Positions 4,848 through 60,191 of a DNA stretch of 64,000 bases are shown one piece after another. The notes under the pieces were generated by a model, which saw only the letters and a list, made by a program, of their open reading frames with translations, was not told the origin of the DNA and made no database searches. Source of the DNA: a virus; the IMG/VR virus record IMGVR_UViG_3300045988_097776. The stretch is one strand, 5' to 3'. How positions within the stretch are numbered: position 1 is the stretch's first letter; each line of letters opens with the position of its first letter. The translations under genes and the position numbers were made by a program.

Positions 4848-5165
4848 TTATTTTTTCGGTTTACGCTTTTGTACAAGCGTTAACTCGAAACTATCCCCAC
4901 CGATAAAAAACGCAATTTGGCGTTCCTTGTTTGTTATGGCAAGGTCAACAATCGAGAATTGACTATTTTTTTCCAAAAAGTCCGCCAGCTCTGCGATTAT
5001 GCCGCCTTTAGTTGCGTTTGGCTTGCGTTGCCGTGGTGTAAATTTGTAGGCGGTAGGGGTTTTTCTTGTGCCAGCATGGGCGAATTTCTGCGCGATTTTC
5101 GCTTTATCGGGCGATAAATCGTATTGAGTTTTTTCACCAGCTTCCACCGCCTTGTCATAGGCCAA
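4848..5165 (-). CDS. hypothetical basic protein, 105 aa
   Basis: ORF track; GC-rich. Confidence 0.4.
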   Translation of the reverse strand: MAYDKAVEAGEKTQYDLSPDKAKIAQKFAHAGTRKTPTAYKFTPRQRKPNATKGGIIAELADFLEKNSQFSIVDLAITNKERQIAFFIGGDSFELTLVQKRKPKK

Positions 5166-5302: not shown

Positions 5303-5704
5303 TTACGCCATCTTAAAGAGAGACTTGCCCTTCTTCTCCTGACAGGTCACACGGCCGTCCAGCTTGAGCATCCGCACAAGGGCGGCGGCCTTCTGAGTGG
5401 AGAAAGCGGCCAGAGAGGGCACAGACTTGAAAATGTCGGTACAGGTCACGCCGTCGGTGTCATCGGGCAGGCCGGCCAGATACTCCATAATCTGCTCCTT
5501 CAGGCTCTCGTTCTCCTGCTGGGTCGGGGTCAGCTTCTTGTCACCGCCGGAGCTATTCTTCTTCCGCAACAGCTCCAGCTCATGGTCAATGACGGTCATG
5601 GCAATCTCCATGGTTGTGCCATGCTTCACCTCCTCACCAGCCAAGAGGGCCTTAATGTCCTCGAAACGCTGGGCCTTAGTGATACGGATTTTCTTCTCGC
5701 TCAT
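5303..5704 (-). CDS. hypothetical protein, 133 aa (GC-rich segment)
   Basis: ORF track; local GC content is well above the window average. Confidence 0.4.
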   Translation of the reverse strand: MSEKKIRITKAQRFEDIKALLAGEEVKHGTTMEIAMTVIDHELELLRKKNSSGGDKKLTPTQQENESLKEQIMEYLAGLPDDTDGVTCTDIFKSVPSLAAFSTQKAAALVRMLKLDGRVTCQEKKGKSLFKMA

Positions 5705-5744: not shown

Positions 5745-6060
5745 TTTGATTATATTGTACCACACTATCGGGAGTTTGTCAAGAGGTTTTTCAAACTTTT
5801 TTCAAGAGCTTTTGCCCTTTACTTGTTTGCCCTCTCTCGTTCCCCTTATAGTGTAACACACTTTGGAGAGTTTGTCAAGCCCTTTTTTATTCACTTTTCA
5901 AGGTTCCTTGCCTTGTTTTCTGTACTTATTATAGCACACTCACAAGGGCTTGTCAAGAGGTTTTTTGAAAGATTTTTGAAAGTTCGCTGTCGCTGTCTGC
6001 CGTTCGTCTCTCTCACTTTCTGTACTTATTGTACCACACCACAAAGCGGATTTCAATTGT
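5745..6060 (-). promoter_or_regulatory. array of 4 tandem near-consensus sigma70 promoters (TTGACA-17-TACAAT/TATAAT, some with TGn) reading leftward
   Basis: Minus strand: TTGACAaactcccgatagtgtggTACAAT at 5752-5780, TTGACAaactctccaaagtgtgTTACACT near 5850-5878, TTGACAagcccttgtgagtgtgcTATAAT near 5929-5956, and TTGAAAtccgctttgtggtgtggTACAAT at 6029-6057. Confidence 0.65.
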
Positions 6061-6096: not shown

Positions 6097-6120
6097 TTTT
6101 GTGCAAAATGTTGCACAAAA
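6097..6120. promoter_or_regulatory. perfect 24-bp palindrome TTTTGTGCAAAA-TG-TTGCACAAAA (operator-like) upstream of the promoter array
   Basis: The left half is the exact reverse complement of the right half. The TTGTGCAA motif recurs near other early promoters. Confidence 0.55.
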
Positions 6121-6159
6121 CGGAATCAAATTTTTTGTGCAACATTTACAAGGAAAAAA

Positions 6160-6200
6160 TCGGGTCGCGCCGCCCATGCGCGACCCGCCAAAATATAAAA
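6160..6200 (-). terminator. rho-independent terminator (minus strand)
   Basis: CGGGTCGCGC-ATGG-GCGGCGCGACCCG followed by a T-run on the minus strand. Confidence 0.6.
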
Positions 6201-6227
6201 CAAAAAAAGAAGGCCGAAGCCCTCTTT

Positions 6228-6512
6228 TTATCCGAAAAGGCAGTTATCTAAAAAGTCGAACAGGTGTTCATCCTCGGCGGGGATGGATACCAGTATATCC
6301 CCGTTTTCATCGGGTTCATCATGGCTCCATCCCATACGCTTGATGATTTCAAGCGCCGTGAAAACGGCATCGGGACAAAGGGAAGAAGTATATACAATTC
6401 TTGTTTGCATATTTAACCCTCTTTCTTTGAGTAGAACTGGTCGGCATAAAACTGCATTTCTTTCTGCGTTACCTTGGAAAGCATGGCCTTGATGGTAAAT
6501 ACATCTGGGCAC
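6228..6512 (-). CDS. hypothetical protein, 94 aa
   Basis: ORF track. Confidence 0.4.
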   Translation of the reverse strand: MPRCIYHQGHAFQGNAERNAVLCRPVLLKERGLNMQTRIVYTSSLCPDAVFTALEIIKRMGWSHDEPDENGDILVSIPAEDEHLFDFLDNCLFG

Positions 6513-6592
6513 GTCCGCTCAAGTAGGAAGCGAATAGCCTTATTCTTTAATCCCTGAAACATTTCTTATTTCTCCTTCTACCGGGCGGGGCA

Positions 6593-7417
6593 TTAAGCCC
6601 CGACCCGGATTGTCGGAATCTGCCGCAAACTTGCGGAAAGCTGACGCTGAAAATCTGTCATGGGCGGAAACTCCCGCTTGTTCTCATACAGGGCCTTTCT
6701 CATGGGCTTATGCTGGCGCATACAGTACCACATGATTTCCGCCTCAATCAGAACATCTTCCAGTCCCGTGTGGCTTTCCTCAAAATCAGTGTTGCCGGAG
6801 ATAAACCGCCACACGATTTCCGCAGTCTTGCGGGGAACGCCATTAGCCTGCACATACCCGTGTTCTTCACAGAATTTCTTATAGGTGGGCATCTGGCAAA
6901 TGACATCTTGCATCATTTTCATAATGTCCCAAATTTCCACGCTGTCAAATGGGAACCAATACCGGAATTTGGAACAAGTGACCCAACGCTGAGTGACCCG
7001 AAGGGCGTTATCATCGAAGCGGGCATTATATGCGGCGACCTCCTTAATGCCGTACCGCTCGATAGTGTCCAGCATGGCCTGACGGATTTCATAGGTAGTA
7101 GCCATCTTGCGACTGCCAGCCCGCAATTCCTCTACATACCGGGGGATTTTCCAGTTATAATAGGCCGTCCGCATTAAATCCCGCTCGTCATTGAAAATAT
7201 CCCGATTTACAAAACTTGCGGTTTCGTAAATATTGCCTTTGGTGTCTACGACCGCCCAGCCGCAGTCATATACCAAAACATTTGACATATCCATACGGAC
7301 GCGCTCTGGAGTAATAATTTCCCCATCTTCCCCAATTTCAGCGGGGACAGTCTCGGTTAATGTGTTGGCGGTTTCTGTATCAACCACCAGCACATAATGT
7401 CGGCGTTTATCAATCAT
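6593..7417 (-). CDS. DEDDh 3-prime to 5-prime exonuclease (DnaQ/RNase T-like)
   Basis: Exo I motif VLVVDTETANT, Exo II YNARFD and Exo III HTGLEDV. Length 274 aa. A consensus promoter (TTGACA-17-TATAAT) lies at 7452-7480. Confidence 0.6.
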   Translation of the reverse strand: MIDKRRHYVLVVDTETANTLTETVPAEIGEDGEIITPERVRMDMSNVLVYDCGWAVVDTKGNIYETASFVNRDIFNDERDLMRTAYYNWKIPRYVEELRAGSRKMATTYEIRQAMLDTIERYGIKEVAAYNARFDDNALRVTQRWVTCSKFRYWFPFDSVEIWDIMKMMQDVICQMPTYKKFCEEHGYVQANGVPRKTAEIVWRFISGNTDFEESHTGLEDVLIEAEIMWYCMRQHKPMRKALYENKREFPPMTDFQRQLSASLRQIPTIRVGA

Positions 7418-7590
7418 AATCTATCAAGTCCTTTCTTCTCTTGGTGGTATCATTATAGCACATTTAAGGCTTGGTGTCAAGAGGGATTTTATATTTTTTT
7501 TCTCCGTTGAAAAAGGCGTCGCGATAACCTCTCTCACAAAAGGGACTCTTTACCCTACTCTGGAGAACTTTTTCCTTTCCTCCTGACATG

Positions 7591-7720
7591 ATAATAATAC
7601 CATAGTTTCAGGATAATTGCAAGATGGCATTTTGCACAAGATTTCTGCTTGAAAATTGTGCAACATTACAACAGAAAAAAATGCGGCCCGCGGCGCTCAA
7701 GCGCGGGCCGCTGATTTTCT
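7591..7720 (-). promoter_or_regulatory. promoter-terminator cassette: TTGCAA-17-TATTAT promoter, TTGCACAA/TTGTGCAA dyad motifs and a GC-rich terminator hairpin
   Basis: About 75 bp are nearly identical to 9041-9120. Hairpin GCGGCCCGCGGCGCTCAAGCGCGGGCCGC. Confidence 0.55.
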
Positions 7721-7756
7721 TTATATAAAAAATTCTCCCATTTAGGGAGGATTTTT

Positions 7757-7993
7757 TTAAAACTCTAAAATTGGTGTTTCATCAGGCAGAGCATCTACGC
7801 TGGTGATGGAGATAGATTTATTGTAATCAGTGGAAATTCCTGTCACTCTCTCAATTTCTTTAGTGGCAATATCATACATAATATCGTTTGCAACTGAAGC
7901 CGGGCCTTTTCTATGAATATCGGCCAGCTGTTGGAAGATAGGATGATCGACCTCTAACTCACGCTGGATAGAAATTGAAATTTTAACTCTCAT
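7757..7993 (-). CDS. hypothetical protein, 78 aa
   Basis: ORF track. Confidence 0.4.
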   Translation of the reverse strand: MRVKISISIQRELEVDHPIFQQLADIHRKGPASVANDIMYDIATKEIERVTGISTDYNKSISITSVDALPDETPILEF

Positions 7994-8025
7994 ATAACTT
8001 TTCTTTCTATTGGGAACGCCTTAAA

Positions 8026-8174
8026 TGGCGTTCCCGATTTTGAAGCACTTGGCCGAAGGCGACCAAAGAGAACCGGCCTTGCGCTTGGCATCAGAACGGG
8101 CACGGTCAACATCCTTACCGACACCCACGAACACATGGCCCGCCGCAGTCTTAAAGTAGAAATTCATCATAGTA
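8026..8174 (-). CDS. hypothetical small GC-rich protein, about 49 aa
   Basis: Manual translation: MMNFYFKTAAGHVFVGVGKDVDRARSDAKRKAGSLWSPSAKCFKIGNAI. Confidence 0.35.
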
Positions 8175-8303
8175 AAGCTTCCTTTCTTTTATGAGGGTTA
8201 TCCCCTCTTGATGATTAAATTATACCACAATGCGGTGAGATTGTCAAGAACTTTTTTACGTATTTTCCAGATATGGGGCGGGGATTTCACCCGCCCCTTT
8301 TAT

Positions 8304-8768
8304 TTAGTCCAGATTGTTGATATATTCAATAATGTTTGTAGTTTGGGGGTCTACGGTATCCCCTAAATGCCAGCCGTTTCTAATTTTGCCGTTATCATCA
8401 AAGAGGATAAACGGCGGTTCATAGAAACTACGGAATACACATTTAGCTTTAGTTGTTCCATACGCCACACAATGGCATTTATGGGCCGGAAATTTATGCC
8501 TTGCAAGCCATTCCTTTTTGGCGGCTGTGACTGCTTTCTTATATTCAGGGGGGCTTTCAGGGGGCAACCATGTAATAACTCGAACCTCCCACCCGTTACT
8601 AATTGCGTTTAGAAGCGCATTTCGGAGGGCGTTCATATCCCACATGGGGGCGGCGTCTCGGAATGGGCTGGGGTCTCCATCGCGGAGTTTTTCAAGCCAG
8701 TTGGGGACTGCGTATAGATCTGCAATTGTCCCGTCCATATCAAAGCAGAGCATTTTTTTAGTTATCAT
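8304..8768 (-). CDS. HAD-superfamily phosphatase (5-prime nucleotidase / deoxyribonucleotidase-like)
   Basis: N-terminal CFDMDGTIAD (the DxDGT motif). Length 154 aa. Consensus promoter at 8791-8819. Confidence 0.55.
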   Translation of the reverse strand: MITKKMLCFDMDGTIADLYAVPNWLEKLRDGDPSPFRDAAPMWDMNALRNALLNAISNGWEVRVITWLPPESPPEYKKAVTAAKKEWLARHKFPAHKCHCVAYGTTKAKCVFRSFYEPPFILFDDNGKIRNGWHLGDTVDPQTTNIIEYINNLD

Positions 8769-8796
8769 ATATATAACCTCCTTTTGTTTTATTATA

Positions 8797-9021
8797 CTAC
8801 CTGTTGCCTATCTTGTCAACAAGTTTTTCAAAGAAATTTTTATGCCGATATACCTTATAAGGCATTGACGTATAATCCACATAAATTAGAGGGTCGCGCA
8901 AAAGAATAGCTTGCATATAGATCCCATAATTCTCTGGGGTGGTAGTACCACCAAATTGGCGGCGGTAGATTTCAGCCACAGTTAAACACTCATTAGGCCG
9001 AATAAACTTTGAAGGTTTCAT
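8797..9021 (-). CDS. hypothetical protein, 74 aa
   Basis: ORF track. Promoter TTGCAA-17-TATTAT at about 9041-9075, a duplicate of the 7600 cassette. Confidence 0.4.
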   Translation of the reverse strand: MKPSKFIRPNECLTVAEIYRRQFGGTTTPENYGIYMQAILLRDPLIYVDYTSMPYKVYRHKNFFEKLVDKIGNR

Positions 9022-9204
9022 TTAGTGTCCCTCCTTCTTTCTGTACTAATAATACCATAATTTAAGGATAATTGCAAGATGACATTTTGCACAAGATTTC
9101 AAGTCAAAAATTGTGCAGAACTTACAAACAAGAAAACTCGGCGCGCTGTGAGCGTCAGCGCGCCGTCGAAATTTTGGTATAAAAAAAGAGGGCCGAAGCC
9201 CTCT

Positions 9205-9684
9205 TTAATTTTCTGCAAATTGAGCTAGAAATTGCGCAGAAAGTCGAACCATATCATGCGCTGATTCTTTATCGTTTTTATAGCAAATAAAGCCGATTAC
9301 CTCACCTTCTGCAATAATAGGAGTAACAAACAACGATTTTCCCTTCCATTCAGTACCCCAATTACGAATATTGAACCATTCATCCGGGGTCTTTGACATT
9401 CCGAAGGGGCGAGGGCCGCACAAAAGACTTGAATTATCAAAAACCGATGCTAAAATGCCGTTAATGCTTAAAACTTTTTGAATATGTGCGGCCTGAGGAG
9501 CAAAAGAAGATAGTAGGGAATATTTCTTGAAAACCACCCCGCCATCTTCAATAAAGATTTCTAGCGGGTCGCCTTCCCGAATATTCATATTCCGACGAAT
9601 TTCCTTAGGAATTACTACCCGGCCGAGATCATCAATGCGCCGCACAATGCCAGTTACTTTCATTTTTTTTATTAGAGAGGGCAA
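9205..9684 (-). CDS. SpoVT/AbrB-family transcriptional regulator (swapped-hairpin N-domain plus GAF-like C-domain)
   Basis: N-terminus MKVTGIVRRIDDLGRVVIPKEIRRNMNIREGDPLEI is the AbrB/MazE/SpoVT signature. Length 159 aa. Terminator at 9170-9205. Confidence 0.7.
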   Translation of the reverse strand: MPSLIKKMKVTGIVRRIDDLGRVVIPKEIRRNMNIREGDPLEIFIEDGGVVFKKYSLLSSFAPQAAHIQKVLSINGILASVFDNSSLLCGPRPFGMSKTPDEWFNIRNWGTEWKGKSLFVTPIIAEGEVIGFICYKNDKESAHDMVRLSAQFLAQFAEN

Positions 9685-9714
9685 GGCTATTGCTTGCCCT
9701 CTCTACCTCCTTCC

Positions 9715-10110
9715 TTAAAACTCCTTGCGCAGTTCCTCAAGCATGGCTGTTAAGGTGTTCATATCTCCACCCATTTCCAATTTGACGCACATGAGCCGGG
9801 TCTGCTCGTTAATCCATGTGTTAATCTCTGCGATTTCATCATCCATTTTTTCCTTGGCCGGAGTATAAATGCCGCAAGTGCAGGTCTGGATGACATTCTC
9901 GCAATATCTGGAAGTCTTATAGCCCTTAGCCTGCATTTCCGCCTGGATAGTATCGCCCAGCTCATTGGCCGACTTGACGATAGCCTCCTTAAAAGCCTCC
10001 AGCGCGTCGAACTCTGGCTGATACCTCTCCCGGATAGCCGCCTCCTTACAGGCAGAAATCTTGCGAACCTCGTCACGAACATATTCTTCAATTCTCTTAG
10101 TAACACGCAT
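9715..10110 (-). CDS. hypothetical protein, 131 aa
   Basis: ORF track. Consensus promoter TTGACA-17-TATACT at 10176-10204 and terminator at 9680-9715. Confidence 0.45.
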   Translation of the reverse strand: MRVTKRIEEYVRDEVRKISACKEAAIRERYQPEFDALEAFKEAIVKSANELGDTIQAEMQAKGYKTSRYCENVIQTCTCGIYTPAKEKMDDEIAEINTWINEQTRLMCVKLEMGGDMNTLTAMLEELRKEF

Positions 10111-10344
10111 TTCTAAAAACTCCCTTTCTGTTTTAATTTGAGAGGTTTTACTCGTTTCCCCTCTTTACATTTAATAGTATAGCAGATTTCGGGAGAAGTG
10201 TCAATCGTCAAAATGCACAACATTTGCAAACATATTTTGTTGAAACTGCTAATCATAGAAAATTCGGATCGCGCCAACCCTGCGCGATCCGCCCAATATT
10301 ATGCAAATAAAAAAGAAGCTCCCGGAAAACCGGGAGCATTTCTT

Positions 10345-10584
10345 TTACATCATAGGGAAATCAATGCCAATTTCGTTAGCTCTGCGGTCAGCCTCTTCGT
10401 CGAAGACCGCCTTCAAAATAGTGGCCGCGTCATCGGGAGTACAGGTATCTTCACGCAGGAACTTCCCCAAAGACTGAACCAAAGCGGAGTCGGCCGAACT
10501 CCGGTCTATCAAACGCATTGCTGTATGAAGAGCAATCAGACTGTCCCTATCTTCCTCGGTCATCTTGGGCATCTTGATAGTCAT
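10345..10584 (-). CDS. hypothetical protein, 79 aa
   Basis: ORF track. Promoter TTGACA-17-TATAAT at 10635-10663. Terminator GCTCCCGG-AAAA-CCGGGAGC at 10318-10345. Confidence 0.45.
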   Translation of the reverse strand: MTIKMPKMTEEDRDSLIALHTAMRLIDRSSADSALVQSLGKFLREDTCTPDDAATILKAVFDEEADRRANEIGIDFPMM

Positions 10585-10838
10585 AACATACTTCCTTTCT
10601 GGTTTTATAGAGTTTTCCTTCTCTTGATGGTATTATTATATCATAAAGGGTTGGATTTGTCAACCCTTTATATCGGAGTATTTATAATATATCCAAACAT
10701 TATAATTTCGGCGGCGAAAAGTATAGCAAGCAGGAAATGGTTTTTTATTATAGCGGTCACATACTGGATAGTCAGGCAAATGGCAAGAACAATTATGATA
10801 AAAGTGGTCATGCTAGTTCCTCCTGCGGTAGAGAGGGA

Positions 10839-11078
10839 TTATACCCTCTCTACCTCGATAATTTCCATGTCGAAATTTTCCCAGCAGGCCCCAAGGAGCA
10901 TATCATGCCGCAGGTCGTTTTCGCTTTCGTAGTCCATATCTTCCAGAATGTCCTGCCAGTTATCGGGATTATATTGCTTTTTCAGCCAGTCCCAACCGGC
11001 GCCACGAGCCAGCCGCAGGTCATCAGATACACAGATAATATTCTCACGATTATCAGCCATAACCACATAGCTTTTCAT
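10839..11078 (-). CDS. hypothetical acidic protein, 79 aa
   Basis: ORF track. Promoter TTGACT-17-TATACT near 11121-11160. Confidence 0.4.
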   Translation of the reverse strand: MKSYVVMADNRENIICVSDDLRLARGAGWDWLKKQYNPDNWQDILEDMDYESENDLRHDMLLGACWENFDMEIIEVERV

Positions 11079-11324
11079 TTTCTTTTACTCCCTTTCTTGA
11101 GGGCTTTTGTTCTCCCCTCTTGATGGTTTAAGTATATCAGAATGAGAGAGAAAAGTCAAGCGATTTTGGGAAATTTCTTTCCGTCAATTTCACCAATAAA
11201 TCGAGCCAAAATTTGTGCAAATTACCTCTTGACAAAAAATTCCGGCCGCTGCGCTCATGCGCGGCCGGCTGAACAATATATTTTGAATTGGAAAAGAAAT
11301 TCCTCCCATTTTGGGAGGAAAATC

Positions 11325-11462
11325 TCAATCTACATATTCTCGATTTAAAACTTTTACAACCTCTTCAGGTTTACGTCGAGACCGGAAAAGAGCATCTTCA
11401 TAGGAATAACCAGAGATATTGTCGGTCGAGCCATTTTCAAGCAAAATCTCAAATTCATACAT
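11325..11462 (-). CDS. hypothetical small protein, about 45 aa (internal start of the listed ORF)
   Basis: A promoter -10 and TSS fall inside the listed ORF. AAGGAAG RBS before the internal ATG (MYEFEILLENG...). Confidence 0.3.
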   Translation of the reverse strand: MYEFEILLENGSTDNISGYSYEDALFRSRRKPEEVVKVLNREYVD

Positions 11463-11518
11463 ATCTCTCAACTTCCTTTCTTTTGATAACTTAATTTTAA
11501 CATAAGAATTTCGGGAAG

Positions 11519-11755
11519 TCAATCGGTACTTTCAACAATTTTCATTCCATTTGCTTGTATAATTCGCATAGCTTCTTCAAGAGAAGTATTGTCAACGGAG
11601 CCACAGTCGATACAAATATATTTTCTGCCATCCTTTACCATAGTAGTGAAATAATATTCTTGACCAGAAACAAGGCCCATCTACTCTCGTAGTCTTACGG
11701 GAATCATGATGCGCCCACTTGAATCCAATTTCCTTGAGAAAGTAGTTTCTTGCAT
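11519..11755 (-). CDS. AbrB/MazE-family DNA-binding protein, 78 aa, with 1 in-frame TAG
   Basis: Manual translation: MQETTFSRKLDSSGRIMIPVRLRE[Q]MGLVSGQEYYFTTMVKDGRKYICIDCGSVDNTSLEEAMRIIQANGMKIVESTD. The GRIMIP motif is the swapped-hairpin signature. Confidence 0.55.
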
Positions 11756-11843
11756 TTTGCTAAATAAATTCTAGTGACCTAGGTTCGTGCGAAAAACGAC
11801 TCCATCACGGGAATCGCCGATTTGTAACAATCGGAGGGAATAA

Positions 11844-11960
11844 TTACCACTCGCAAGGCATTTTCTGGCAGAACTGAGCCATAGGACAATTCTTACAAGA
11901 ATCCTAGTTCAAACAGAACTCCAGAATGACCGCAAGAGCTTTCAGCACTTCTAAGGTCAT
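11844..11960 (-). CDS. small Cys-rich protein, 38 aa, 1 in-frame TAG
   Basis: AAGGAG RBS. Product MTLEVLKALAVILEFCLN[Q]DSCKNCPMAQFCQKMPCEW. Confidence 0.35.
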
Positions 11961-12135
11961 TAGAAAACTCCTTTCTTTATTTTTCTATATATATTATAAA
12001 ATATTTTTTTAAAAAAAGCAAGGACTGACTTATGCCAGCTCCAGCCTCTGTAACCAGATAAGGTGATATTTCCCCAGTCTTGCCAAAACTGTTCCGTATC
12101 CCTTATTAGTCCAAACAGTGGAACCAATAGGATAT

Positions 12136-12387
12136 TCACGCGGAAGTCTCTCGATAGTCATTGATAATCCCCTTTTCTGTAAAGAATCCGACAAGATGTT
12201 CTGCTGCACTGGACTTATGCGGAGTTATCAACAACCACGCACCGCGAAGATTATCAATAGTCGATAAAGACCAGTCCGCGCCCATCTGACTAATTAAGCA
12301 CTCGAAACTTGCTCGATCCTCAAGAGAGTTAAACGAAACTACATATTTTCCCATGCGGAAATCGACCTCCATAGAATTTTTTATCAT
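12136..12387 (-). CDS. hypothetical protein, 83 aa; a coupled 43-aa ORF follows at 12004-12135
   Basis: ORF track. ATGA start/stop overlap at 12133-12138 suggests translational coupling with the downstream small ORF MTIERLPREYPIGSTVWTNKGYGTVLARLGKYHLIWLQRLELA. Confidence 0.4.
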   Translation of the reverse strand: MIKNSMEVDFRMGKYVVSFNSLEDRASFECLISQMGADWSLSTIDNLRGAWLLITPHKSSAAEHLVGFFTEKGIINDYRETSA

Positions 12388-12426
12388 GGGGAGTGGAAGT
12401 CATAGACCTCCACTCCCGCAGGTTTC

Positions 12427-12666
12427 TTATGCGTTAATGTAGATATTAACGCCACCTTCTTCTCTCATTTCAATCTCAGTCACCTGCTTCTTGAACAGGG
12501 CGCTGAGGTCATCGCCATAAAAGTCACCGCCGAGCTGGAGCTTCCATTCCTTGTCAAACCGGAAATGTGCGCCGGTATTGCTGTCGATTACCTGAATAGC
12601 CGCATCCTCTTCCAGACAGAAAGAGTATTGCCGGAACAAAATCACAACGTCTTTGAAGCACACCAT
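12427..12666 (-). CDS. hypothetical protein, 79 aa
   Basis: ORF track. Promoter TTGACA-17-TATATT at about 12705-12745. Confidence 0.4.
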   Translation of the reverse strand: MVCFKDVVILFRQYSFCLEEDAAIQVIDSNTGAHFRFDKEWKLQLGGDFYGDDLSALFKKQVTEIEMREEGGVNIYINA

Positions 12667-12922
12667 TTCTTTTACTTCCTTTCAAATTCTTTTTGTGGTC
12701 TGTCTCTCTGGACAAGTATAATATACCATACCCACAAAGGAATGTCAAGCGATTTCGGGAGAAAAATTCTCGGCAGATTGCACAAACTTTTGGCCATATA
12801 ATTGTTGAAACTGCCGAACAAACAAAAATTCGGGCCGCGGCGCACGCTGGCGGCCCGGCGAAAAGTCAATATGGGAAAGTGCACAAAAATATCCGGCAAT
12901 CTTTGTGTAGATTACCGGATAG

Positions 12923-13066
12923 AATATTAAAACATCACAGTAAAGAAGTTATACTCACTATGCTGTGGATTTGGATAGCTGTTATCTGCTACTATGTCAG
13001 CCCAGCTCAAAGCAATCCAGAGAAGGAGAGCGGCGCAAAGGCCGCCTCCTATATACCGTAGCACTC
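12923..13066 (-). CDS. small membrane protein, about 47 aa
   Basis: Manual translation: MRVLRYIGGGLCAALLLWIALSWADIVADNSYPNPQHSEYNFFTVMF. Start overlaps the stop of the upstream gene. Confidence 0.3.
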
Positions 13067-13453
13067 TCATACCGCAGGCTCCTTCCCCAGAAGGTCATAC
13101 CGTCCAGGGATTTCGGCATTAAGCCTATCCCATTCTTTGGCAGTTACCCTGTCATACTCATTATAATAGTTATCCCGAATGATATAAAGCTGTTCTGTGG
13201 TGTCCTTATCCAGAGCGGCCTTATACTCGTCAAGAGAGGCAGGACGAGTGTGAAGCTTGCTGTTGATATACCGTGCATTGATAAAGGCCCAATGTGGCAT
13301 GACGGCCTTAGAGATAGCATTAAAAGCGTCTAAGTCAAGGATGATACCATCATCCACAGCGGCCGCCTTCACATTCATGGAGTAACGGAGAACACGCACG
13401 AACTCAGGCTTATTAAAGGTGGGATTGGTGTAATACTTGATGAAGTTAGACAT
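13067..13453 (-). CDS. hypothetical protein, 128 aa
   Basis: ORF track; AAGGAT RBS. Confidence 0.45.
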   Translation of the reverse strand: MSNFIKYYTNPTFNKPEFVRVLRYSMNVKAAAVDDGIILDLDAFNAISKAVMPHWAFINARYINSKLHTRPASLDEYKAALDKDTTEQLYIIRDNYYNEYDRVTAKEWDRLNAEIPGRYDLLGKEPAV

Positions 13454-13508
13454 ATCTTTTATCCTTTCTCCCCGTATAGCCGTTAGGTCAGCTTCTTGTG
13501 GTATATGG

Positions 13509-13772
13509 TTACTTGATAGCTTCGCCGGTAGACAGGTCTACAATCCAATAGTCAGGATTGACAAGCTCATGGTCTACTCTCCATCTTGCGTGTGCAAAAG
13601 TAGACGGCTCATAGTATCGCATTTTGTCACCCACTAAAACCTGCAACTGATACCTCATAATACCGCCTTCTTTCTTTTGATTATTATAACCCTGCCTTGC
13701 CTTGGGTTTTGCAAGGCAGGGTTTATAAACTACTGCTGATTGAGTTCTTTTTGCTGGTCTTTCGTTGCCCAA
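13509..13772 (-). CDS. hypothetical protein, 87 aa
   Basis: ORF track. Confidence 0.35.
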   Translation of the reverse strand: MGNERPAKRTQSAVVYKPCLAKPKARQGYNNQKKEGGIMRYQLQVLVGDKMRYYEPSTFAHARWRVDHELVNPDYWIVDLSTGEAIK

Positions 13773-14170
13773 TCAAGAGAGGTTCTGACCGTCGGACGCT
13801 TGCGGTATTGCTCCGCCTCTGCCTTTGTGCCGCCTTTAGCTAAAGCGTAGGCTTTCCAGTCTATCGCTCCTTTAGCGGTAGTCTCTTTATAGACCACCGC
13901 ATGAGCGGCGCCCTTTATCTGGACTGTGCCGTACAGATAAGAGGTCTTATCCGTGGTCTTGAACTCTTTCCTCAAACGGGTGAAAAGCTCTTTCGCTTTG
14001 GCCTTGGCCGCTTTCTCTGCAACCTCTGCCGCCGCTACTGCTTGCTTAGCGGCTAGGTACTCCATGATGACCTTCCTATCATCATTGGCAAAATCAATCT
14101 TTTTCATACTCTTTTGACTCCCTTTCTTTTTGTGGTGTGATTCTCTTTTGTTCTGTCTGTATTGTATCAA
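13730..14170 (-). CDS. hypothetical protein, 146 aa (coiled-coil N-terminus; possibly a Gam-like nuclease inhibitor)
   Basis: ORF track. Consensus promoter TTGACA-17-TACAAT at about 14150-14200; a second TTGACA-17-TAAACT at about 14270-14300. Terminator at 13690-13730. Confidence 0.4.
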   Translation of the reverse strand: MIQYRQNKRESHHKKKGSQKSMKKIDFANDDRKVIMEYLAAKQAVAAAEVAEKAAKAKAKELFTRLRKEFKTTDKTSYLYGTVQIKGAAHAVVYKETTAKGAIDWKAYALAKGGTKAEAEQYRKRPTVRTSLDWATKDQQKELNQQ

Positions 14171-14592
14171 GTCTTTTAAGACTTGTCAATACTTTTTTTG
14201 AAAATTTTTAATTTTCAAGGTACATTGAGTTTTGCCCTGTCCTCTACTGGACAAGTCCAGTTTACACCCGTTTGCCCTGTTTGTCAATAGTTTTTTGAAA
14301 TTTCTTTCTCTCTCTTTTGCACAAAATAAACATTGTTCAACTGTGCAATTTGCATAAATCCTTTACGCGCGCGTATTCCTTTAGGGCGTGGCTTTTTACT
14401 TTCATACTTTAATGAGTGAAAGAGGCTGACTACACTTCAGCACTTTACCATGTGAAAGGGGAGGGTGTATTTTGGGAAAAACTGGAAATTTTTTCGCAAA
14501 TTTGTTCTGCCACGCCATTTCAAAATCTAAATCGTACTTTCAATCTCAATAACGAAAAAAAGATGAAAGGCTAAACTTTTAACCTTTCATCT

Positions 14593-14759: not shown

Positions 14760-15197
14760 TTAATGGTATAATTGATATTTTCTGCCAATCTTATCAATCT
14801 CCTCAGCTTCCATTGGCCTAAATCCAATACAAGTGAGAGTCCCTTCAGGACTCTCTTTTTCCAGCTCTGTCCTGCAAGCATCGTAAATCAAAAAGTAATC
14901 TTTATACTCCTCCATACCGAGCTCTTTAGCTGCTTCGACCGCCCGCAATAAATCATTCTTATTTTTCGCTCGACAAACAACTTTAGTTTCTGCTTCTATT
15001 ATCCAATTATGGTATAAATCTGTATCGAGACTTACATTCACATGATACATAATACCATCTCTTTCCCTAACTACTTCTTTGCTTCCCCAAAGTATTTTCT
15101 CTAAAAGAAAAGCAATAGAAGCATGGGAAACTTGTGCGGCCAGCTTACCTGGAGACATATTTAAATCTTTTCTAGCTATAATTAACTGTTTATACAT
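14760..15197 (-). CDS. peptidyl-tRNA hydrolase, PTH2 family
   Basis: IIARKDLNMSPGKLAAQVSHASIAF matches the PTH2 R-x-D-L-x-M-x-x-G-K-x-A-A-Q-x-x-H-A core. The C-terminal half aligns with the human PTRH2 fold (…KVV..A.....L......A...G…). Confidence 0.8.
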   Translation of the reverse strand: MYKQLIIARKDLNMSPGKLAAQVSHASIAFLLEKILWGSKEVVRERDGIMYHVNVSLDTDLYHNWIIEAETKVVCRAKNKNDLLRAVEAAKELGMEEYKDYFLIYDACRTELEKESPEGTLTCIGFRPMEAEEIDKIGRKYQLYH

Positions 15198-15946
15198 TCT
15201 TTACCTGCTTTCAAAAATGCCCTAAAATTCTGGGAGTTGCGGTCAGGAATTGCAAAATAAATATTTGGAATATTATAATTGCGGGCTGCGCCTATGAGCA
15301 AGGTTGCGACCGTATACGGATCTTGCATAAAAACTCCACAACCCCAGGCTCCCGCGATTAGATTTTCCACACCGTTTTCCTCAGCAATCTGATACATAAA
15401 GTGAATTCGATCTTCAAGAACTCTATCATTCTCGCTCTTACTCACACTCTGGTATCTATGCGCCGTTCGGAAATTCGGGGCCGCACAAGTTATAATATCT
15501 GCTTCCTTTTGTTTGTCATTGCGCTCGAATACTACGCTAGGAGAATACAGCGCTCTATTTAAATATAAAGCCTTATTTAATCTCTGTCGATTCCATGCGT
15601 AATACGTTTCATCAAAAGCAAGAAGGATAGGGTAAAGATTGGATTCATGACAAAGAGCCTCTTCCTGCGCGGGACTACCTCCTAGAAAAAATCCACCCGG
15701 GTTTTTATAACTGGCGTAGTTAAGAATTGCTGTTCTACCATTGTTAGATAAATTGAATAGGCAAGATACACTATCCATATCTGTTAGAGTAAAAGCTGGT
15801 TTCTGATTGCCGGATTCATGCTGTGTAAAAGAATCTGGACTATATACATATGTGCGCTCGATAGATAATTTAGTGTTTGCGGCAAGTCTAGTTTTAATAT
15901 CTTCATAATGCGCTCGTGCCTTGATTGCGCGCTCTTGTTTTGTCAT
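15182..15946 (-). CDS. macrodomain-fold poly(ADP-ribose) glycohydrolase-like protein (bacterial PARG/DUF2263 family)
   Basis: NPGGFFLGGSPAQEEALC matches the bacterial PARG signature G-G-x(6-8)-Q-E-E. Length 254 aa. AAAGGAGG RBS. Overlaps the PTH2 start, so the two probably form an operon. Confidence 0.55.
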   Translation of the reverse strand: MTKQERAIKARAHYEDIKTRLAANTKLSIERTYVYSPDSFTQHESGNQKPAFTLTDMDSVSCLFNLSNNGRTAILNYASYKNPGGFFLGGSPAQEEALCHESNLYPILLAFDETYYAWNRQRLNKALYLNRALYSPSVVFERNDKQKEADIITCAAPNFRTAHRYQSVSKSENDRVLEDRIHFMYQIAEENGVENLIAGAWGCGVFMQDPYTVATLLIGAARNYNIPNIYFAIPDRNSQNFRAFLKAGKECINS

Positions 15947-16145: not shown

Positions 16146-16505
16146 TCAATGCATGGGTTCATATTTACACCCCTTTATTCTACAATCTAGTAAACACTGT
16201 CCTGTAGCTCCATCACAGGGAATTGCATCAGGGTAATCCTCAAAATAAGACGAAGCTAATAGGACTTCATACCCGAGTTCTCGCAATATTCTTTCTGCGA
16301 TATATCTATTCCTCAGCTTTACCCATTCTTCTCTATTTATTTTTGTTTCTCTGTATATTTCTCTGGATTTCTCCATATCTACTGTTATGCTGCCATCAAT
16401 ATTAGTCTTAAATGTTGAATCCTGTGTACGATAAAATTCTCGAAAAGGATTTTCAATATGAAGAACCTCTCTAGCATAATTATCAAAATCTTCTGAGAAT
16501 TTCAT
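16146..16505 (-). CDS. hypothetical protein, about 119 aa
   Basis: ORF track; the likely start ATG at 16503-16505 overlaps the FolD stop (TAATG). Confidence 0.4.
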   Translation of the reverse strand: MKFSEDFDNYAREVLHIENPFREFYRTQDSTFKTNIDGSITVDMEKSREIYRETKINREEWVKLRNRYIAERILRELGYEVLLASSYFEDYPDAIPCDGATGQCLLDCRIKGCKYEPMH

Positions 16506-17296
16506 TATCTTCGCGCCTGTTTCGCTAACTATAAGCAATTTTTCATCAACCCCAATCTAGTCAATAATCCCACCCCTCCGGGCACAGGAGTTGACCACAC
16601 TTCATTTCTCTTTGCAATATTTTCAAGTTCAACAAAATCGCCTTGAATAAAATTCGCCTAATTTCTACGAATACCAACATCAACAACAATAGCGTGAGGG
16701 CAAGCCTCTCTTGTCAAAGTAAAATCTCCAACTGCGGATACTACTAAATCTGCTATTCTTGCTAAATAAAGCTTCGCATTTACATTTGTTTTACTGTGAC
16801 AGATAGATACAGTCATATTTCTCGCCAACAACTCTTTCGCCATTGGCTTACCAACTATATTACTTCTACCTAATATTAAAGCACTTTTACCTTCATACTT
16901 AAAACCACAGTCATCAAGATAGTCTACTATTCCTCTTACCGTTGCCGGTAAAACAAGAGTAGAAGAAGTTAAACCGTCGCAGTCTTTTATCGTAGGAATT
17001 ACATCAATAGAAAAAGAACTCAATGAATCTCTTAGTGGCATTTGTGCTATAATACAATCAGTATCTATACTATTTATGTAATTATTTAAATCTGCGGGAG
17101 TCCAGTGTTCTGGAACTTTAATCACGCTTACTGGCCATCCTAATTCATTAAAGTCGTCTACTTTTTTCTATATATAAATCTAATTTCCGGCATCCCCGTT
17201 AGTTGCATCAATTATGGTCAATGATGGCTTGACATCGGACTGCCGCAATTCATCTTTCTATTGTTTAAAATATTCTTTTATGTTAATCTATTGCAT
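16505..17296 (-). CDS. folD: bifunctional methylenetetrahydrofolate dehydrogenase/cyclohydrolase FolD, 263 aa, 3 in-frame TAG
   Basis: The listed 155-aa ORF ends at a TAG. Reading through gives ...GRSNIVGKPMAKELL...VVDVGI...PVPGGVGLLT, the FolD C-domain. Upstream through two more TAGs gives the N-domain MQQINIKEYFKQQKDELRQSDVKPSLTIIDATNGDAGNQIYIQKK. Confidence 0.8.
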
Positions 17297-17621
17297 CTGG
17301 TTCTAGCCCCCATGGATCATCAGTATCATAATCAATCATATCATAGAATGATATTTTGTTATTAGGCGTTATTTCTAAAACCTAATGTGGGATACAACAT
17401 ATTTCATAATCAGAATCTCTATCTAAATTATATGAAGCATAAATATGCAAAGCCGTTGGTCTTGCATTATTGATATTTTGAACATCCCATAAGTCAACAG
17501 TGTTTTTATGTCCAAGTATGTCTGTTAGAACTTCTGGCTATACTGCTATGCTTATAATTAAAATGTTAAAGTAATACTATGCTCGTTTTGGTAATTCAGA
17601 ATAGGGCGTATCGAAAAACAT
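17283..17621 (-). CDS. hypothetical protein, 112 aa, 3 in-frame TAG; first gene of the leftward early transcript
   Basis: GGAGG RBS 10 nt before the ATG (cat at 17619-17621 on plus). Reading through TAG gives one ORF ending at TAA 17283-17285 and overlapping the folD start. Confidence 0.45.
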
Positions 17622-56862: not shown

Positions 56863-57319
56863 ATTTCTCGCAAGGAGGTTTACTATATAAATGATAATGC
56901 GGTTTTTCTTCTCCAAACCATTTCCATCTTAGGTAGTCGTCTAATACTATTGCCAAAAGGCTTAAAAAGAACCAGGCGATAGAGAATGGTAAACAAATCT
57001 ACCCCATAAAATTCAATGGAACGTGAGAATAATCCCAAATACCTAAGCCTAGTTTTACATTTAATACTAGACCAAAGATTAATTCTAAAGCAGTTATGAT
57101 TAAAGAGCCTTTTACTCCTTGAGTAAGAATAGATTCTTCCCAAAGAACGTTCTCATTCATTAGTCCTATTAATAAAAAGCATAAGCCGCCCAATAAGAAC
57201 ATAGACCAATGACAAGTTCCAAAGCTGATAAAAGTTTTATAGAGGAACTCTATACCGTAATATAGAGTTCCTCCAACTGCAAATAGAATTATATTTTTAC
57301 TCACTGTCGGTATCTTCAT
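56861..57319 (-). CDS. integral membrane protein (about 4 TM), 152 aa, 1 in-frame TAG
   Basis: Listed ORF 56999-57319 continues through a TAG to TAA 56861. Hydrophobic segments FAVGGTLYYGIEFLY, MFLLGGLCFLLIGLM, IITALELIFGLVLNV and FSIAWFFLSLLAIVL. Confidence 0.5.
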
Positions 57320-59585: not shown

Positions 59586-59615
59586 AAAGATACAGAACTT
59601 AACCGCAGAAAAATA

Positions 59616-60110: not shown

Positions 60111-60191
60111 TTAAAATTTCCCTCACTTGAATATATAATTTTTTTATTGGACAATTTAACCTTAACTGTCCCGAATTGTTATTTTGCTGTA

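Follow-up and report, generated by a model that had tools for sequence, protein, structure and literature searches.

An 8-base motif, TTGTGCAA or its reverse complement TTGCACAA, stands in paired sites before a subset of the early promoters in an uncultivated gut phage in which TAG, a stop codon, is translated into an amino acid. The box is a real, widely conserved regulatory site, and we put the probability that its copies are half-sites of a protein-binding operator at roughly 85%. The boxes would define a new regulon, whose binder we name as a candidate: the reader of the boxes is probably either a winged-helix protein of the phage that an initial annotation of this DNA had missed or a host factor.

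Results

Boxes are confined to intergenic DNA of the early region

The window, by which we mean the whole 64,000-nt stretch of DNA analysed, contains 10 exact boxes in either orientation (starts at 6099, 6111, 6135, 7632, 7656, 9087, 11213, 12778, 14317 and 60610) against 1.8-2.0 expected, a number reached by 0 of 100 shuffles. Nine of the ten lie within 6099-14324 (P ~9e-8 from length alone), and all nine are intergenic though the early region is 69% coding (P = 2.4e-5). From base composition alone, 0.13 copies are expected in the intergenic part of the early region (3.56 kb); the tenth copy, at 60610, is within coding sequence and resembles a chance match, and one-mismatch variants are not enriched over the whole window (58 vs 54 expected). 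The earlier proposal of operator-like sites tied to leftward early promoters is supported by this intergenic placement, by dyad symmetry, by boxes that stay invariant while the spacer between them varies, and by discrete distances to the -35 element.

Boxes form dyads within a repeated terminator-promoter cassette

On the gene (minus) strand the core unit is the inverted pair TTGCACAA-N16-TTGTGCAA, which, counting variants, occurs in all seven cassettes of the window. Each belongs to a module of ~130 bp that opens with a GC hairpin terminator (27 nt, followed by a T-run); 18-21 nt separate this from the distal box and 16 nt the distal from the proximal box, after which comes a sigma-A-type promoter.

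14341..14357, no strand: tight pseudo-palindrome CTGTGCAA-T-TTGCATAA with a single mismatch in each arm; outermost operator, where the leftward early region begins; the inner arm (14341-14348) doubles as distal box of the first dyad
14317..14324, minus: exact proximal box, whose start is 24 bp from that of 14341-14348; downstream, after 29 bp, comes the -35 of promoter 14287-14259
14161..14287, minus: two tandem sigma-A-type promoters, TTGACA-17-TAAACT (14287-14259) and TTGACA-17-TACAAT (14189-14161)
12879..12886, minus: one-mismatch box TTGTGCAC (gene strand), past the gene's own terminator (12890-12921), overlapping the T-run, upstream of the cassette hairpin
12824..12857, minus: cassette hairpin (27 nt, 12831-12857) and T-run, an intrinsic terminator on the gene strand
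12802..12809, minus: variant distal box TTCAACAA
12778..12785, minus: exact proximal box, cassette 12780
12720..12760, minus: TCCCGAAA (12753-12760), then promoter TTGACA-17-TATATT (12748-12720); box to -35, 29 bp
11494..11538, minus: variant box TTGTTGAA (11531-11538), 8-bp gap, promoter TTGACT-17-TAAAAT (11522-11494)
11242..11268, minus: hairpin terminator, cassette 11215
11189..11220, minus: dyad of exact distal box (11213-11220) and degenerate proximal box TTGGTGAA (11189-11196), 24 bp apart
11131..11159, minus: promoter TTGACT-17-TATACT, 29 bp past the proximal box
10265..10291, minus: hairpin terminator, cassette 10215
10213..10245, minus: dyad of variant distal box TTCAACAA (10238-10245) and proximal box TTGTGCAT (10213-10220)
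10176..10204, minus: promoter TTGACA-17-TATACT with TCCCGAAA (10187-10194) in its spacer; box to -35, 8 bp
9139..9165, minus: hairpin terminator, cassette 9100
9049..9118, minus: dyad of distal box CTGCACAA (9111-9118) and exact proximal box (9087-9094), 9-bp gap, promoter TTGCAA-17-TATTAT (9077-9049)
7683..7711, minus: hairpin terminator, cassette 7640
7594..7663, minus: exact dyad TTGCACAA-N16-TTGTGCAA (7656-7663, 7632-7639), 9-bp gap, promoter TTGCAA-17-TATTAT (7622-7594); closely duplicates cassette 9100
6161..6187, minus: hairpin terminator, cassette 6100
6099..6142, no strand: densest operator, three exact boxes: distal (6135-6142), 16 nt, then palindrome TTGTGCAA-N4-TTGCACAA (6099-6118)
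5754..6056, minus: four strong promoters in tandem (6056, 5956, 5878, 5782), separated by ORF-free DNA and with short conserved leaders, that lead into gene 5303-5704

This inventory revises several individual sites of the initial annotation. The 24-bp palindrome at 6097-6120, described there as perfect, consists of two perfect 10-bp arms (TTTTGTGCAA / TTGCACAAAA) flanking AATG, a centre that lacks self-complementarity, which leaves 22 of its 24 positions symmetric. The supposed single site at 14341 is one arm of the tight pseudo-palindrome, exactly 24 bp from the 14317 box, and TTGTTGAAACTGC (10238 and 12802), read there as a separate shared element, occupies the distal-box position 24-25 bp from the proximal box and is the variant that reads TTCAACAA on the gene strand. 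The sites placed at 11212 and 12777 are exact boxes, with true starts at 11213 and 12778, while those at 10213, 9111 and 14341 prove to be one-mismatch copies (TTGTGCAT, TTGTGCAG and CTGTGCAA). A position at or just upstream of the -35, claimed for all sites, holds in three cassettes (gap 8-9 bp) and fails in three others (29 bp) and in one (54 bp).

Two kinds of box spacing dominate, 24/23 bp in the dyad and 9 bp in the tight palindrome. The latter, 17 bp long with inverted boxes 1 nt apart, is the commonest form in relatives and is also that of 14341-14357, whose orthologues read TTGTGCAAaCTGCACAA and TTGTGCAAcTTGCACAG in L003 and L023; a 20-bp form with the boxes 4 nt apart occurs at 6099-6118. 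Some boxes lie beyond the cassette frame as well, following terminators or within gene 3' ends. The one-mismatch copy at 12879..12886 is replaced by an exact box in L009-group relatives, and the TTGTTGAA box, within the 3' end of an AbrB-like gene and followed by TCCCGAAA (11509-11516) in the promoter spacer, corresponds to an exact TTGTGCAA in L007. The TCCCGAAA element is strictly oriented, 26 bp past the proximal box. The cassette hairpin, 94% paired and with compensatory changes in 7 of 10 pairs, is by this pattern a selected structure, and the layout shows a module that both insulates and drives a subset of the short early operons in this TAG-recoded, Firmicutes-type phage.

Boxes persist across divergent phages

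Each of 23 related phage contigs carries between 6 and 15 exact boxes in a locus no longer than 21 kb, and in a comparison of 11 orthologous cassettes the boxes do not vary, whereas the 16-nt spacer between them does. Gene content between the cassettes is highly variable among these relatives; the cassettes themselves persist. In phAss-1, a published TAG-recoded phage whose proteins are only 31-44% identical to those of the window phage, 9 of 11 boxes genome-wide lie in the early end with the same geometry, and boxes recur in many further phage contigs, including phages that lack detectable DNA similarity.

Distances from the proximal box to the -35 fall into discrete classes of 8-9, 18-19, 29-30, 41 and 63 bp. 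The classes are about one helical turn apart (51 contexts at 8-9 bp, 14 at 18-19 and 9 at 29-30), although these statistics overstate independence because orthologous or paralogous copies account for many of the contexts counted; a 33-bp class (7 contexts) and the 54-bp case in the window are out of helical phase.

Discussion

Candidate binders of the boxes

Five genes of the window bear on the identity of the binder.

5303..5704, minus: 133-aa protein with a C-terminal winged helix-turn-helix, leading phage-encoded candidate binder
4848..5165, minus: 105-aa basic protein, co-transcribed with 5303-5704 and conserved in phAss-1 too
11519..11752, minus: small AbrB-like gene with an in-frame TAG, proposed as binder by the initial annotation, disfavoured as a universal one
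9205..9663, minus: SpoVT-like gene with AbrB N-domain and GAF-like C-domain, likewise proposed earlier, patchy among relatives
7757..7993, minus: 78-aa protein, probably the "RHH" protein of the initial annotation, which gave no coordinates; matched to it by an N-terminal strand-helix pattern

We tentatively favour the phage's own winged-helix protein, at a little short of an even chance, on the strength of its predicted fold and its distribution. Its model (AF2 pLDDT 87.6) matches in Foldseek the DNA-binding domains of PerR/Fur, ArsR, MarR and Z-alpha, and among 32 family members with a mean identity of 25% the most conserved residues include Gln104 (numbered in the window protein), at the start of the predicted recognition helix, in a motif T-Q-K-x-S/A-x-L. 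The family occurs in every checkable box-bearing clade, namely the window clade (all 23 relatives), phAss-1 (in the early region) and the dyad-bearing phage loci, where it is found in 8 of the 10 richest in boxes among 120, and AbrB-like proteins match in only 2 of those 10. It thus follows the boxes from genome to genome far more closely than the binders proposed earlier. Part of this association comes from synteny, since the loci were fetched around dyads. In L173, L222, L266 and L274 the dyads lie immediately upstream of family members, and in the window the four tandem promoters of the gene stand directly behind the densest operator (6099-6142), which suggests that 5303-5704 may be autoregulated. 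One contig, L028, encodes a 35%-identical member yet has no boxes. No family member was found near the chromosomal Clostridia promoters that carry the dyad, so the winged-helix model leaves the enrichment there unexplained.

That enrichment points to the alternative of a conserved, uncharacterised Clostridia transcription factor whose sites have been wired into phage early promoters, as phi29 and Nf have done with Spo0A boxes, and it means that the regulon need not belong to one phage DNA-binding protein, as had been supposed. A scan for exact dyads with one genome per species returned at least 120 loci, and 92 of the 120 listed are from Clostridia (Oscillospiraceae, Acutalibacteraceae, Ruminococcaceae, Lachnospiraceae and others), a taxon share that is uncalibrated. 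The dyad lies at the chromosomal promoter of a family of 37-44-aa proteins at least 11 times, in at least 10 of 11 cases with a gap of 5 or 6 nt (6 in nine) before a -35/-10 pair spaced by 16-18 bp and matching TTGACA/TATAAT to varying degrees; it also lies upstream of an aminotransferase/TetR divergon at least six times, and of peptide-binding proteins, ECF sigma factors and GPH transporters at least four times each. The context of L089 is chromosomal (SpoIIIAA, alpha-galactosidase), the predicted host of phAss-1 belongs to Clostridia/Eubacteriales (PMC10607447), as a host factor would have it, and the invariance of the box across phages with such divergent proteins is also in its favour. We nevertheless regard this reading as unlikely, though a serious competitor. 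Many of the host matches are orthologous copies, the 6-bp gap to the -35 in hosts vs 8-9 bp in phages places the dyad on another helical face, and two of the adjacent families are TetR regulators, which suggests that part of the host sites may serve unrelated proteins as local operators. Moreover, neither an autoregulated factor gene nor a conserved neighbour was found, and extra boxes are equally enriched in non-Clostridia loci. Were a host factor the binder, phage early transcription would be gated by host physiology.

The AbrB/SpoVT-like and RHH-like proteins are improbable binders. All 23 close relatives do have the small AbrB-like gene, both AbrB-like genes sit in operons with box-bearing promoters, and the distant box-bearing contigs L025 and L027 encode AbrB-domain proteins. 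Against this, the SpoVT-like gene occurs in only 14 of 23 relatives, AbrB-like matches are as sparse among the box-richest phage loci as noted above, and phAss-1, searched over its complete 136 kb genome in six frames with TAG as Gln, has 9 early-region boxes and no AbrB/SpoVT-like ORF (HMM E > 0.7). The paired TGGNA motif of B. subtilis AbrB/Abh (PMC3025583) is unlike the box, and the AbrB N-domain is nearly identical in Bacilli, which contribute one match (Rossellomorea vietnamensis) to the 120 dyad matches listed. The RHH-like protein, which matched nothing in Pfam or PHROG searches, is excluded, as it has no homologue in any of the 23 box-bearing relatives, including L023, which is 96-99% identical.

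Other explanations of the boxes

The boxes might instead lack any binding role and be passengers of a duplicated terminator-promoter module that serves modular gene shuffling, kept alike by descent and recombination in the manner of the PeSL cassettes of T4-type phages, composite repeats of terminator and promoter that have been linked to indels (PMC2839356, PMC4122927). Homology among the cassettes is clear, 7640 and 9100 being near duplicates, and they outlast the genes between them; yet orthologous cassettes keep their boxes invariant while flanks and spacer diverge, and boxes persist in non-cassette contexts, in other arrangements and in phages beyond detectable DNA similarity. We consider passengers very improbable, and a role in shuffling is compatible with an operator role. 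Sites of a known Firmicutes regulator, either Spo0A (TGTCGAA) or the CRP/FNR/Rex type (TGTGA-N6-TCACA), are more improbable still. TGTGCAA differs from the 0A box at only two central bases, and a variant box, TGTTGAA, is identical to an imperfect 0A box protected by Spo0A in phage Nf (PMC2731898). The dominant box, however, has the C and G of the 0A box swapped, and canonical 0A boxes (TGNCGAA) show no enrichment in the early region, which holds 3 of the 25 in the window. The tight palindrome does take the form TTGTG...CACAA. CRP/FNR/Rex sites have 8 bases between TGTG and CACA, and the phage palindromes have 7 or 10. The dyad is, furthermore, almost absent from Bacilli among the 120 matches listed, though Bacilli share regulators of the Spo0A and CRP/FNR/Rex types.

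Scarcely credible is a nucleic-acid structure, whether the inverted pair folds, in RNA or DNA, into a hairpin with an 8-bp stem and a 16-nt loop, or GC hairpin and boxes together serve a phage RNA polymerase as a hairpin promoter, as in N4. In cassettes 7640 and 6100 the two boxes are indeed exact reverse complements of each other, and a conserved hairpin lies 18-21 nt upstream of the pair. Cassettes 10215, 12780 and 11215, however, have a TTCAACAA distal or TTGGTGAA proximal box without compensating change, and the pair, lying between terminator and -35, should be poorly transcribed. The invariant gene-strand T-run marks the GC hairpin as a terminator, the promoters are of near-consensus sigma-A type, the 2,841-aa ORF is a tape-measure protein (PF10145) rather than a virion RNA polymerase, and Rfam gave no matching family.

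A model for control of early transcription

Returning to the operator reading, we propose that a dimeric regulator would occupy both boxes on one helix face relative to RNA polymerase and modulate the box-bearing promoters, most probably by shut-off or feedback after the first minutes of infection, in a way reminiscent of phi29 p4 or a Cro-type repressor. Helical phasing, which the box-to--35 gaps display, is, however, more typical of activators than of repressors. Promoters associated with boxes match the consensus at 9-11 of 12 positions, and five early promoters that lack boxes match it at 12 of 12; these box-less promoters would escape control by the regulator.

Operator boxes in the early region of a TAG-recoded phage

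The window comes from a phage that reads TAG as a sense codon, because long ORFs appear only under this reading: 37 ORFs of at least 200 aa open when TAG is sense versus 14 under the standard code, and the long ORFs of both 17600-56800 (+) and 57300-62050 (-) need recoding. Neither a tRNA scan nor an Rfam scan of the window found anything, so a suppressor tRNA, if there is one, has to be encoded beyond these 64 kb. Identities of 44-50% link the large terminase with its counterparts in Enterococcus phages EF1 and H1, Geobacillus virus E3 and phAss-1, a human-gut phage that reads TAG as glutamine and has a predicted host in Clostridia/Eubacteriales (PMC10607447). The region carrying the motif (about 4.4-16 kb) has a GC content of 41-46% versus 33-35% in the structural region elsewhere, a contrast also present in phAss-1 (0.50 versus 0.36-0.45), and megablast of this region against cultured phages gave no match. 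Its genes are small, lie on the minus strand and almost lack in-frame TAG, and it is rich in TTGACA-17-TATAAT promoters and intrinsic terminators; since recoded codons generally concentrate in late genes (PMC10607447), these properties together lead us to infer that it is the early region.

The 8-mer TTGTGCAA, hereafter the box, occurs 10 times on either strand of the window, compared with 1.8-2.0 copies expected from dinucleotide-preserving shuffles, none of which (0/100) reached this count. Nine copies fall within 6099-14324, and all nine are intergenic in an interval that is 69% coding; for the 3.56 kb of early-region DNA between genes, 0.13 copies would be expected from base composition. 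The tenth copy, at 60610, is intragenic. Because one-mismatch variants show no excess over background across the window, the signal is specific to the exact word. The motif reported in the initial annotation is thus real and intergenic, not a compositional artefact, and its site coordinates were accurate to within 1 bp. Three details needed revision: in the "perfect 24-bp palindrome" only the two 10-bp arms are perfect, and the AATG between them lacks symmetry; the site at 14341, described as single, is one half of a tight pseudo-palindrome; and TTGTTGAAACTGC, described as a separate shared element, is a variant of the distal box. K-mer counts in four early regions put the box, in each of them, with the most frequent 8-mers once low-complexity words are set aside. 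It is the top 8-mer in the related contig L007, and in the other regions it shares its rank with the -35 word CTTGACAA, the leader word TACAGAAA and sometimes unrelated words. Searching the literature for the 8-mer yielded nothing beyond primers and unrelated sequences.

A terminator-operator-promoter module

Read on the gene strand, each cassette follows the gene's own terminator with a 27-nt hairpin and T-run, 18-21 nt, a distal box in inverted orientation (TTGCACAA), 16 nt, the proximal box TTGTGCAA and a promoter. Six hairpin-bearing cassettes and seven box/promoter units in all lie within 8 kb. None of the seven lacks the 24-bp dyad of distal and proximal box, which is there in the first unit (14348-14341 with 14324-14317) and in those with variant boxes (10238, 11189, 12802) as well. 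In some places the outer box also forms a tight palindrome:

Tight palindromes formed by the outer box
6099-6118: palindrome with a 4-nt centre
14341-14357: palindrome with a 1-nt centre
Related contigs L007 and L009: TTGTGCAAaTTGCACAA, palindrome with a 1-nt centre

The cassette hairpin has the consensus CGGnnCGC-N7-GCGnnCCG followed by the T-run. Across 25 copies, 94% of cells are paired and 7 of 10 pairs have changed on both sides; none of 500 shuffles paired as well, no slid register came close, and an invariant TTT directly follows the stem on the transcribed strand. Judged by this pattern of changes, the hairpin is under selection as a structure, and it reads as an intrinsic terminator insulating the promoter. 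The "TGACGAA-like" bases after the proximal box might represent a further, degenerate copy of the box or a site resembling the 0A box. Another motif, TCCCGAAA, is strand-biased (50 copies on the gene strand versus 10 on the opposite strand) and keeps constant distances to the proximal box, +26 in most cases and otherwise -8, -11 or +59; these offsets hold both inside the promoter spacer and upstream of the -35.

Copies of TCCCGAAA in the window, also present in relatives
10187-10194 (-)
11509-11516 (-)
12753-12760 (-)

We compared the window with 23 IMG/VR contigs of 11.8-164 kb (16 longer than 80 kb), chosen by a neighbouring 274-aa protein at 76-98% identity, in which loci of up to 21 kb carry 6-15 exact boxes each. 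In an alignment of 11 orthologous cassettes, the boxes, hairpin scaffold, T-run and promoter hexamers are invariant or nearly so, while the 16-nt spacer between the boxes varies. The boxes also persist at much greater distance. Between phAss-1 and the window, only two early proteins are detectably shared, DNA similarity is absent and protein identity reaches only 31-44%; the complete 136-kb genome of phAss-1 holds 11 boxes, nine of them in the last 10 kb, with the same layout of box, 8-9 nt and -35. A scan of IMG/VR for the exact dyad yielded 120 loci, 45 of which contain at least four boxes.

Two other accounts of the boxes are contradicted by the sequences. If the two boxes acted as the arms of an RNA hairpin, changes in one would be expected to be matched in the other, yet the variant boxes of the cassettes at 10215, 12780 and 11215 break pairing without compensation, and there is no Rfam hit. 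If the boxes were mere passengers of a duplicated cassette, they would not show the footprint of invariant boxes around a variable spacer, nor would they also occur outside cassettes. Based on sequence comparison, we regard the boxes as a genuine, conserved operator system that is part of a terminator-operator-promoter module in the early region of this group of TAG-recoded gut phages. The system is of a familiar kind and introduces no new type of mechanism; the motif, the module and the candidate winged-helix family described below are, as far as our searches could show, undescribed.

Promoter geometry and two classes of early promoter

The distance from the proximal box to the -35 of the best promoter falls into discrete classes, clustering at 8-9, 18-19 and 29-30 bp, as fixed operator geometry would have it; in the window the gaps are 8, 9, 9, 29, 29, 29 and 54 bp.

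Gap between proximal box and -35 (91 distinct contexts, not evolutionarily independent)
8-9 bp: 51 contexts
18-19 bp: 14 contexts
29-30 bp: 9 contexts
33 bp: 7 contexts
41 bp: 2 contexts
54 bp: 2 contexts
63 bp: 3 contexts
1 bp: 3 contexts

Because most of these classes differ by about one helical turn, with the 33-bp and 54-bp classes out of step, the spacing suggests that a box-bound protein would have to face RNA polymerase. Box-bearing promoters match the consensus at 9-11 of 12 positions, whereas the box-less internal promoters at 10663, 8819, 8247, 7480 and 5956 match at all 12, a difference that points to two classes of early promoter, of which one alone would be under box control.

The AbrB-like, SpoVT-like and RHH-like proteins as proposed binders

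The initial annotation proposed that the boxes are bound by one of two AbrB/SpoVT-like proteins or by a ribbon-helix-helix (RHH) protein. The RHH-like protein (7757-7993) is excluded, since no homologue exists in any of the 23 relatives, and the SpoVT-like protein (9205-9663) is found in only 14 of them. The small AbrB-like gene (11519-11752) is present in all 23, but its family comprises 43 clusters that all fall within this clade; phAss-1 has 11 boxes and no AbrB-like ORF, and an AbrB-like match is limited to two of the ten phage loci richest in boxes. AbrB proteins are pleiotropic regulators that bind promoter regions, and the window phage does encode two proteins with the swapped-hairpin N-domain. 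The known determinants of Bacillus subtilis AbrB/Abh, however, are TGGNA pairs joined by A/T (PMC3025583), unlike TTGTGCAA. Among the 120 host loci listed in the bacterial scan described below, two contain AbrB-like ORFs and none of these lies downstream of a dyad, which speaks against AbrB autoregulation in hosts; one apparently bacterial AbrB match, P0132, proved on follow-up to be prophage-borne.

The AbrB-like gene (-) has features of its own. It carries in-frame TAG at three codon positions in three lineages (the window and related contigs L001, L003, L009, L013 and L023), has none in L007 and L020, and is preceded by no visible Shine-Dalgarno sequence. Very few other genes of the early region, which otherwise uses the standard code, need TAG read-through. 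Because these TAG codons sit at lineage-specific positions, the protein would be complete only once TAG is read as glutamine; as a further, less likely layer, part of early-gene control might be tied to the code switch. The upstream segment 11753-11960 (-) is conserved and recognizable even in 60%-identical relatives. Within it lie a small hairpin and an ORF of 38 codons that includes an in-frame TAG; the segment possibly serves as a leader or regulatory RNA.

A winged-helix protein as candidate reader of the boxes

The gene at 5303-5704 encodes a protein with no Pfam or PHROG match, and because a PDB sequence search with it gave no hit, its fold had to be predicted. The high-confidence AlphaFold2 model (pLDDT 87.6) combines a helical N-terminal hairpin with a C-terminal winged helix at residues 60-132, comprising helix 60-77, a bridge strand near 86, helices 88-94, 96-100 and 103-115 and a two-strand wing at 119-132, so that the modelled order of elements is the H1-strand-H2-H3-hairpin wing of that fold. 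Foldseek matched it with a probability of about 1.0 to the DNA-binding domains of PerR/Fur, ArsR, MarR and Z-alpha (rmsd 1.8-2.7 Å over about 68 residues, at E-values of only 3e-3 to 3e-2).

This family occurs in the phAss-1 early region (profile search, E = 2.6e-5). Of the ten loci with most boxes among the 120 from phages, eight encode it, frequently with two to three copies, and dyads lie directly upstream of its members in several very different phages. Across 32 members with a mean identity of 25%, the most conserved residues include Gln104 (window numbering) in the motif TQKxSxL, which would open the predicted recognition helix; an invariant DNA word would demand such a conserved helix. 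In the window, the gene is preceded by four strong promoters in tandem and by the operator with the highest density of boxes (three exact copies), a layout typical of an abundant, autoregulated early regulator. Co-occurrence, operator adjacency and the conserved recognition helix give indirect support to this protein as candidate reader of the TTGTGCAA boxes; the co-occurrence is partly synteny because the loci were fetched around dyads.

The four near-consensus promoters occupy 5750-6060 (-), with no ORFs between them and a short leader after each. The leader GACGAACGGCAGACAGCGACAGCG is conserved in relatives, and the stack could possibly produce small RNAs or drive very high expression of gene 5303-5704. 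The box-rich IMG/VR loci L222, L260, L266, L274 and L203 often encode two or three winged-helix paralogues that are very different outside the recognition helix.

Identical dyads in gut Clostridia

We scanned one genome per bacterial and archaeal species for the exact dyad and obtained at least 120 loci, a count inflated by orthologous loci. Among the 120 matches listed, 92 are in Clostridia, mainly Oscillospiraceae, Acutalibacteraceae, Ruminococcaceae and Lachnospiraceae, and one is in Bacilli; another match, L112, comes from a relative of the phage that was mis-binned. Among these matches, the gene most often seen beside the dyad, in Clostridia genomes, encodes a protein of 37-44 aa (11 times: L035, L057, L073, L083, L089, L100, L115, L117, L119, L120 and L122), which has no Pfam family and no conserved synteny around it. 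At 10 or more of these 11 loci, a gap of 5 or 6 nt (6 in nine) separates the dyad from TTGAC and a -10 hexamer at 16-18 bp, in -35/-10 pairs that fit the consensus to varying degrees. Also among the matches listed, the dyad occurs six times in an aminotransferase/TetR divergon, where outer half-sites TTTGTAG and CTACAAA extend the symmetry, four times each at peptide-binding proteins, ECF sigma factors and GPH transporters, and three times at MsmK-like ATPases.

Because chromosomal dyads recur and no member of the winged-helix family was found in these loci, a host protein with box specificity probably exists; apart from local TetR genes, no regulator gene recurs beside the dyads in the host loci listed. 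Such a protein may read the phage boxes, or the phage may imitate it. The gap to the -35, however, is 6 bp in hosts versus 8-9 bp in the phage, some host dyads may be sites of local TetR regulators, and the excess of additional boxes was the same in non-Clostridia as in Clostridia loci. We consider it rather unlikely that phage boxes and host dyads are read by one specificity, with a Clostridia-wide regulator gating the early programme of TAG-recoded phages or the winged-helix family mimicking that regulator. Were mimicry to operate, the early genes of the phage and, during takeover, a captured host regulon would both come under the phage protein.

The Ruminococcus bromii ATCC 27255 locus L128 has seven boxes in 8 kb, two of which precede near-identical repeats of about 100 nt (708, 1153) that overlap antisense-looking ORFs; the repeats might represent copies of an RNA gene or of a mobile unit controlled in the same way.

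Relation to known systems

Several described regulators fit the boxes poorly. Spo0A boxes are not enriched in the early region (3 of 25 TGNCGAA and 1 of 4 TGTCGAA copies), and the spacing comparison with CRP/FNR-type sites suggested in the initial annotation gave no agreement with these or with Rex sites, as the tight palindromes have N7 (relatives, 14341-14357) or N10 (6099-6118) rather than TGTG-N8-CACA. A virion RNA polymerase acting at N4-type hairpin promoters was likewise rejected: the giant ORF (2,841 aa) encodes a tape-measure protein, the window holds no virion polymerase gene, and the hairpins have T-runs. A 7-1-7 layout is typical of Fur-family boxes, and the tight palindrome TGTGCAA-N-TTGCACA has this layout. 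The phage protein differs from the Fur/PerR, MarR and ArsR families in that it resembles none of them in sequence, lacks a domain for binding metal or ligand and has a helical hairpin as its N-terminal half. The boxes here, moreover, mostly occur as pairs spaced by 24 bp and not as a single compact palindrome.

The early promoters of the Bacillus phages phi29 and Nf, which carry protein p4 sites and host Spo0A 0A boxes (PMC2731898), resemble this system in placing short specific sites upstream of the -35 of sigma-A early promoters in lytic Firmicutes phages, in pairing sites and mixing perfect with imperfect copies, in letting position relative to the promoter decide the effect, and in having a phage protein or a host regulator as reader. 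They differ in motif (TTGTGCAA here, not TGTCGAA or the p4 repeat) and spacing (24 bp here); our phages have at least seven copies per genome, each in a terminator-operator-promoter module, and a candidate winged-helix binder unrelated to p4, in a system known from sequence alone. The promoter-early stem-loop (PeSL) cassettes of T4-type phages (PMC2839356, PMC4122927) likewise repeat units of terminator stem-loop and early promoter between small, variable early ORFs, with gene content between units differing among close relatives, scored here as gene presence or absence. Since the genes between our cassettes are patchy among relatives, a similar gene-shuffling role alongside the operator role is plausible, although these cassettes add a conserved dyad operator and an oriented TCCCGAAA and belong to a phage with a Gram-positive-type host and sigma-A promoters.

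To our knowledge, the "code 15" TAG-recoded gut phages related to phAss-1 are represented by metagenomes only, and the timing of their transcription is undescribed. Our analysis provides a cis-element with its promoter geometry, a map of regulated and unregulated early promoters, a purifiable candidate regulator from a new winged-helix family, and a connection, open to testing, with promoters of Clostridia that abound in the gut, among them Ruminococcus, Faecalibacterium and Oscillospiraceae. Should it be confirmed, the motif could serve to recognise early regions in contigs of such phages and assist host prediction, and the early-to-late switch of stop-codon-recoded phages would become open to experiment.

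Additional features of the window

The segments 14760-15946 (-) and 16505-17329 (-) cover the opening of the early region, with genes for a microbial-type PARG-like macrodomain protein and a PTH2 peptidyl-tRNA hydrolase, and an adjoining FolD homologue with seven in-frame TAG codons. Between the PTH2 gene and the first operator, the non-coding segment 14360-14750 is conserved in relatives and holds direct repeats CCTCTTTCAC-N4-TAAAGT and a CGCGCGCG tract; it is possibly an origin, a packaging site or an RNA gene. At the far end, 57959-62042 (-) contains a diversity-generating retroelement:

Components of the retroelement
57959-59176 (-): reverse transcriptase (RVT_1, E = 8e-17)
59483-59585 and 60206-60308 (-): template/variable repeat pair of 103 nt, 83% identical
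59616-60110 (-): accessory ORF, 164 aa
60192-61820 (-): target gene with Big_3 and DUF6273
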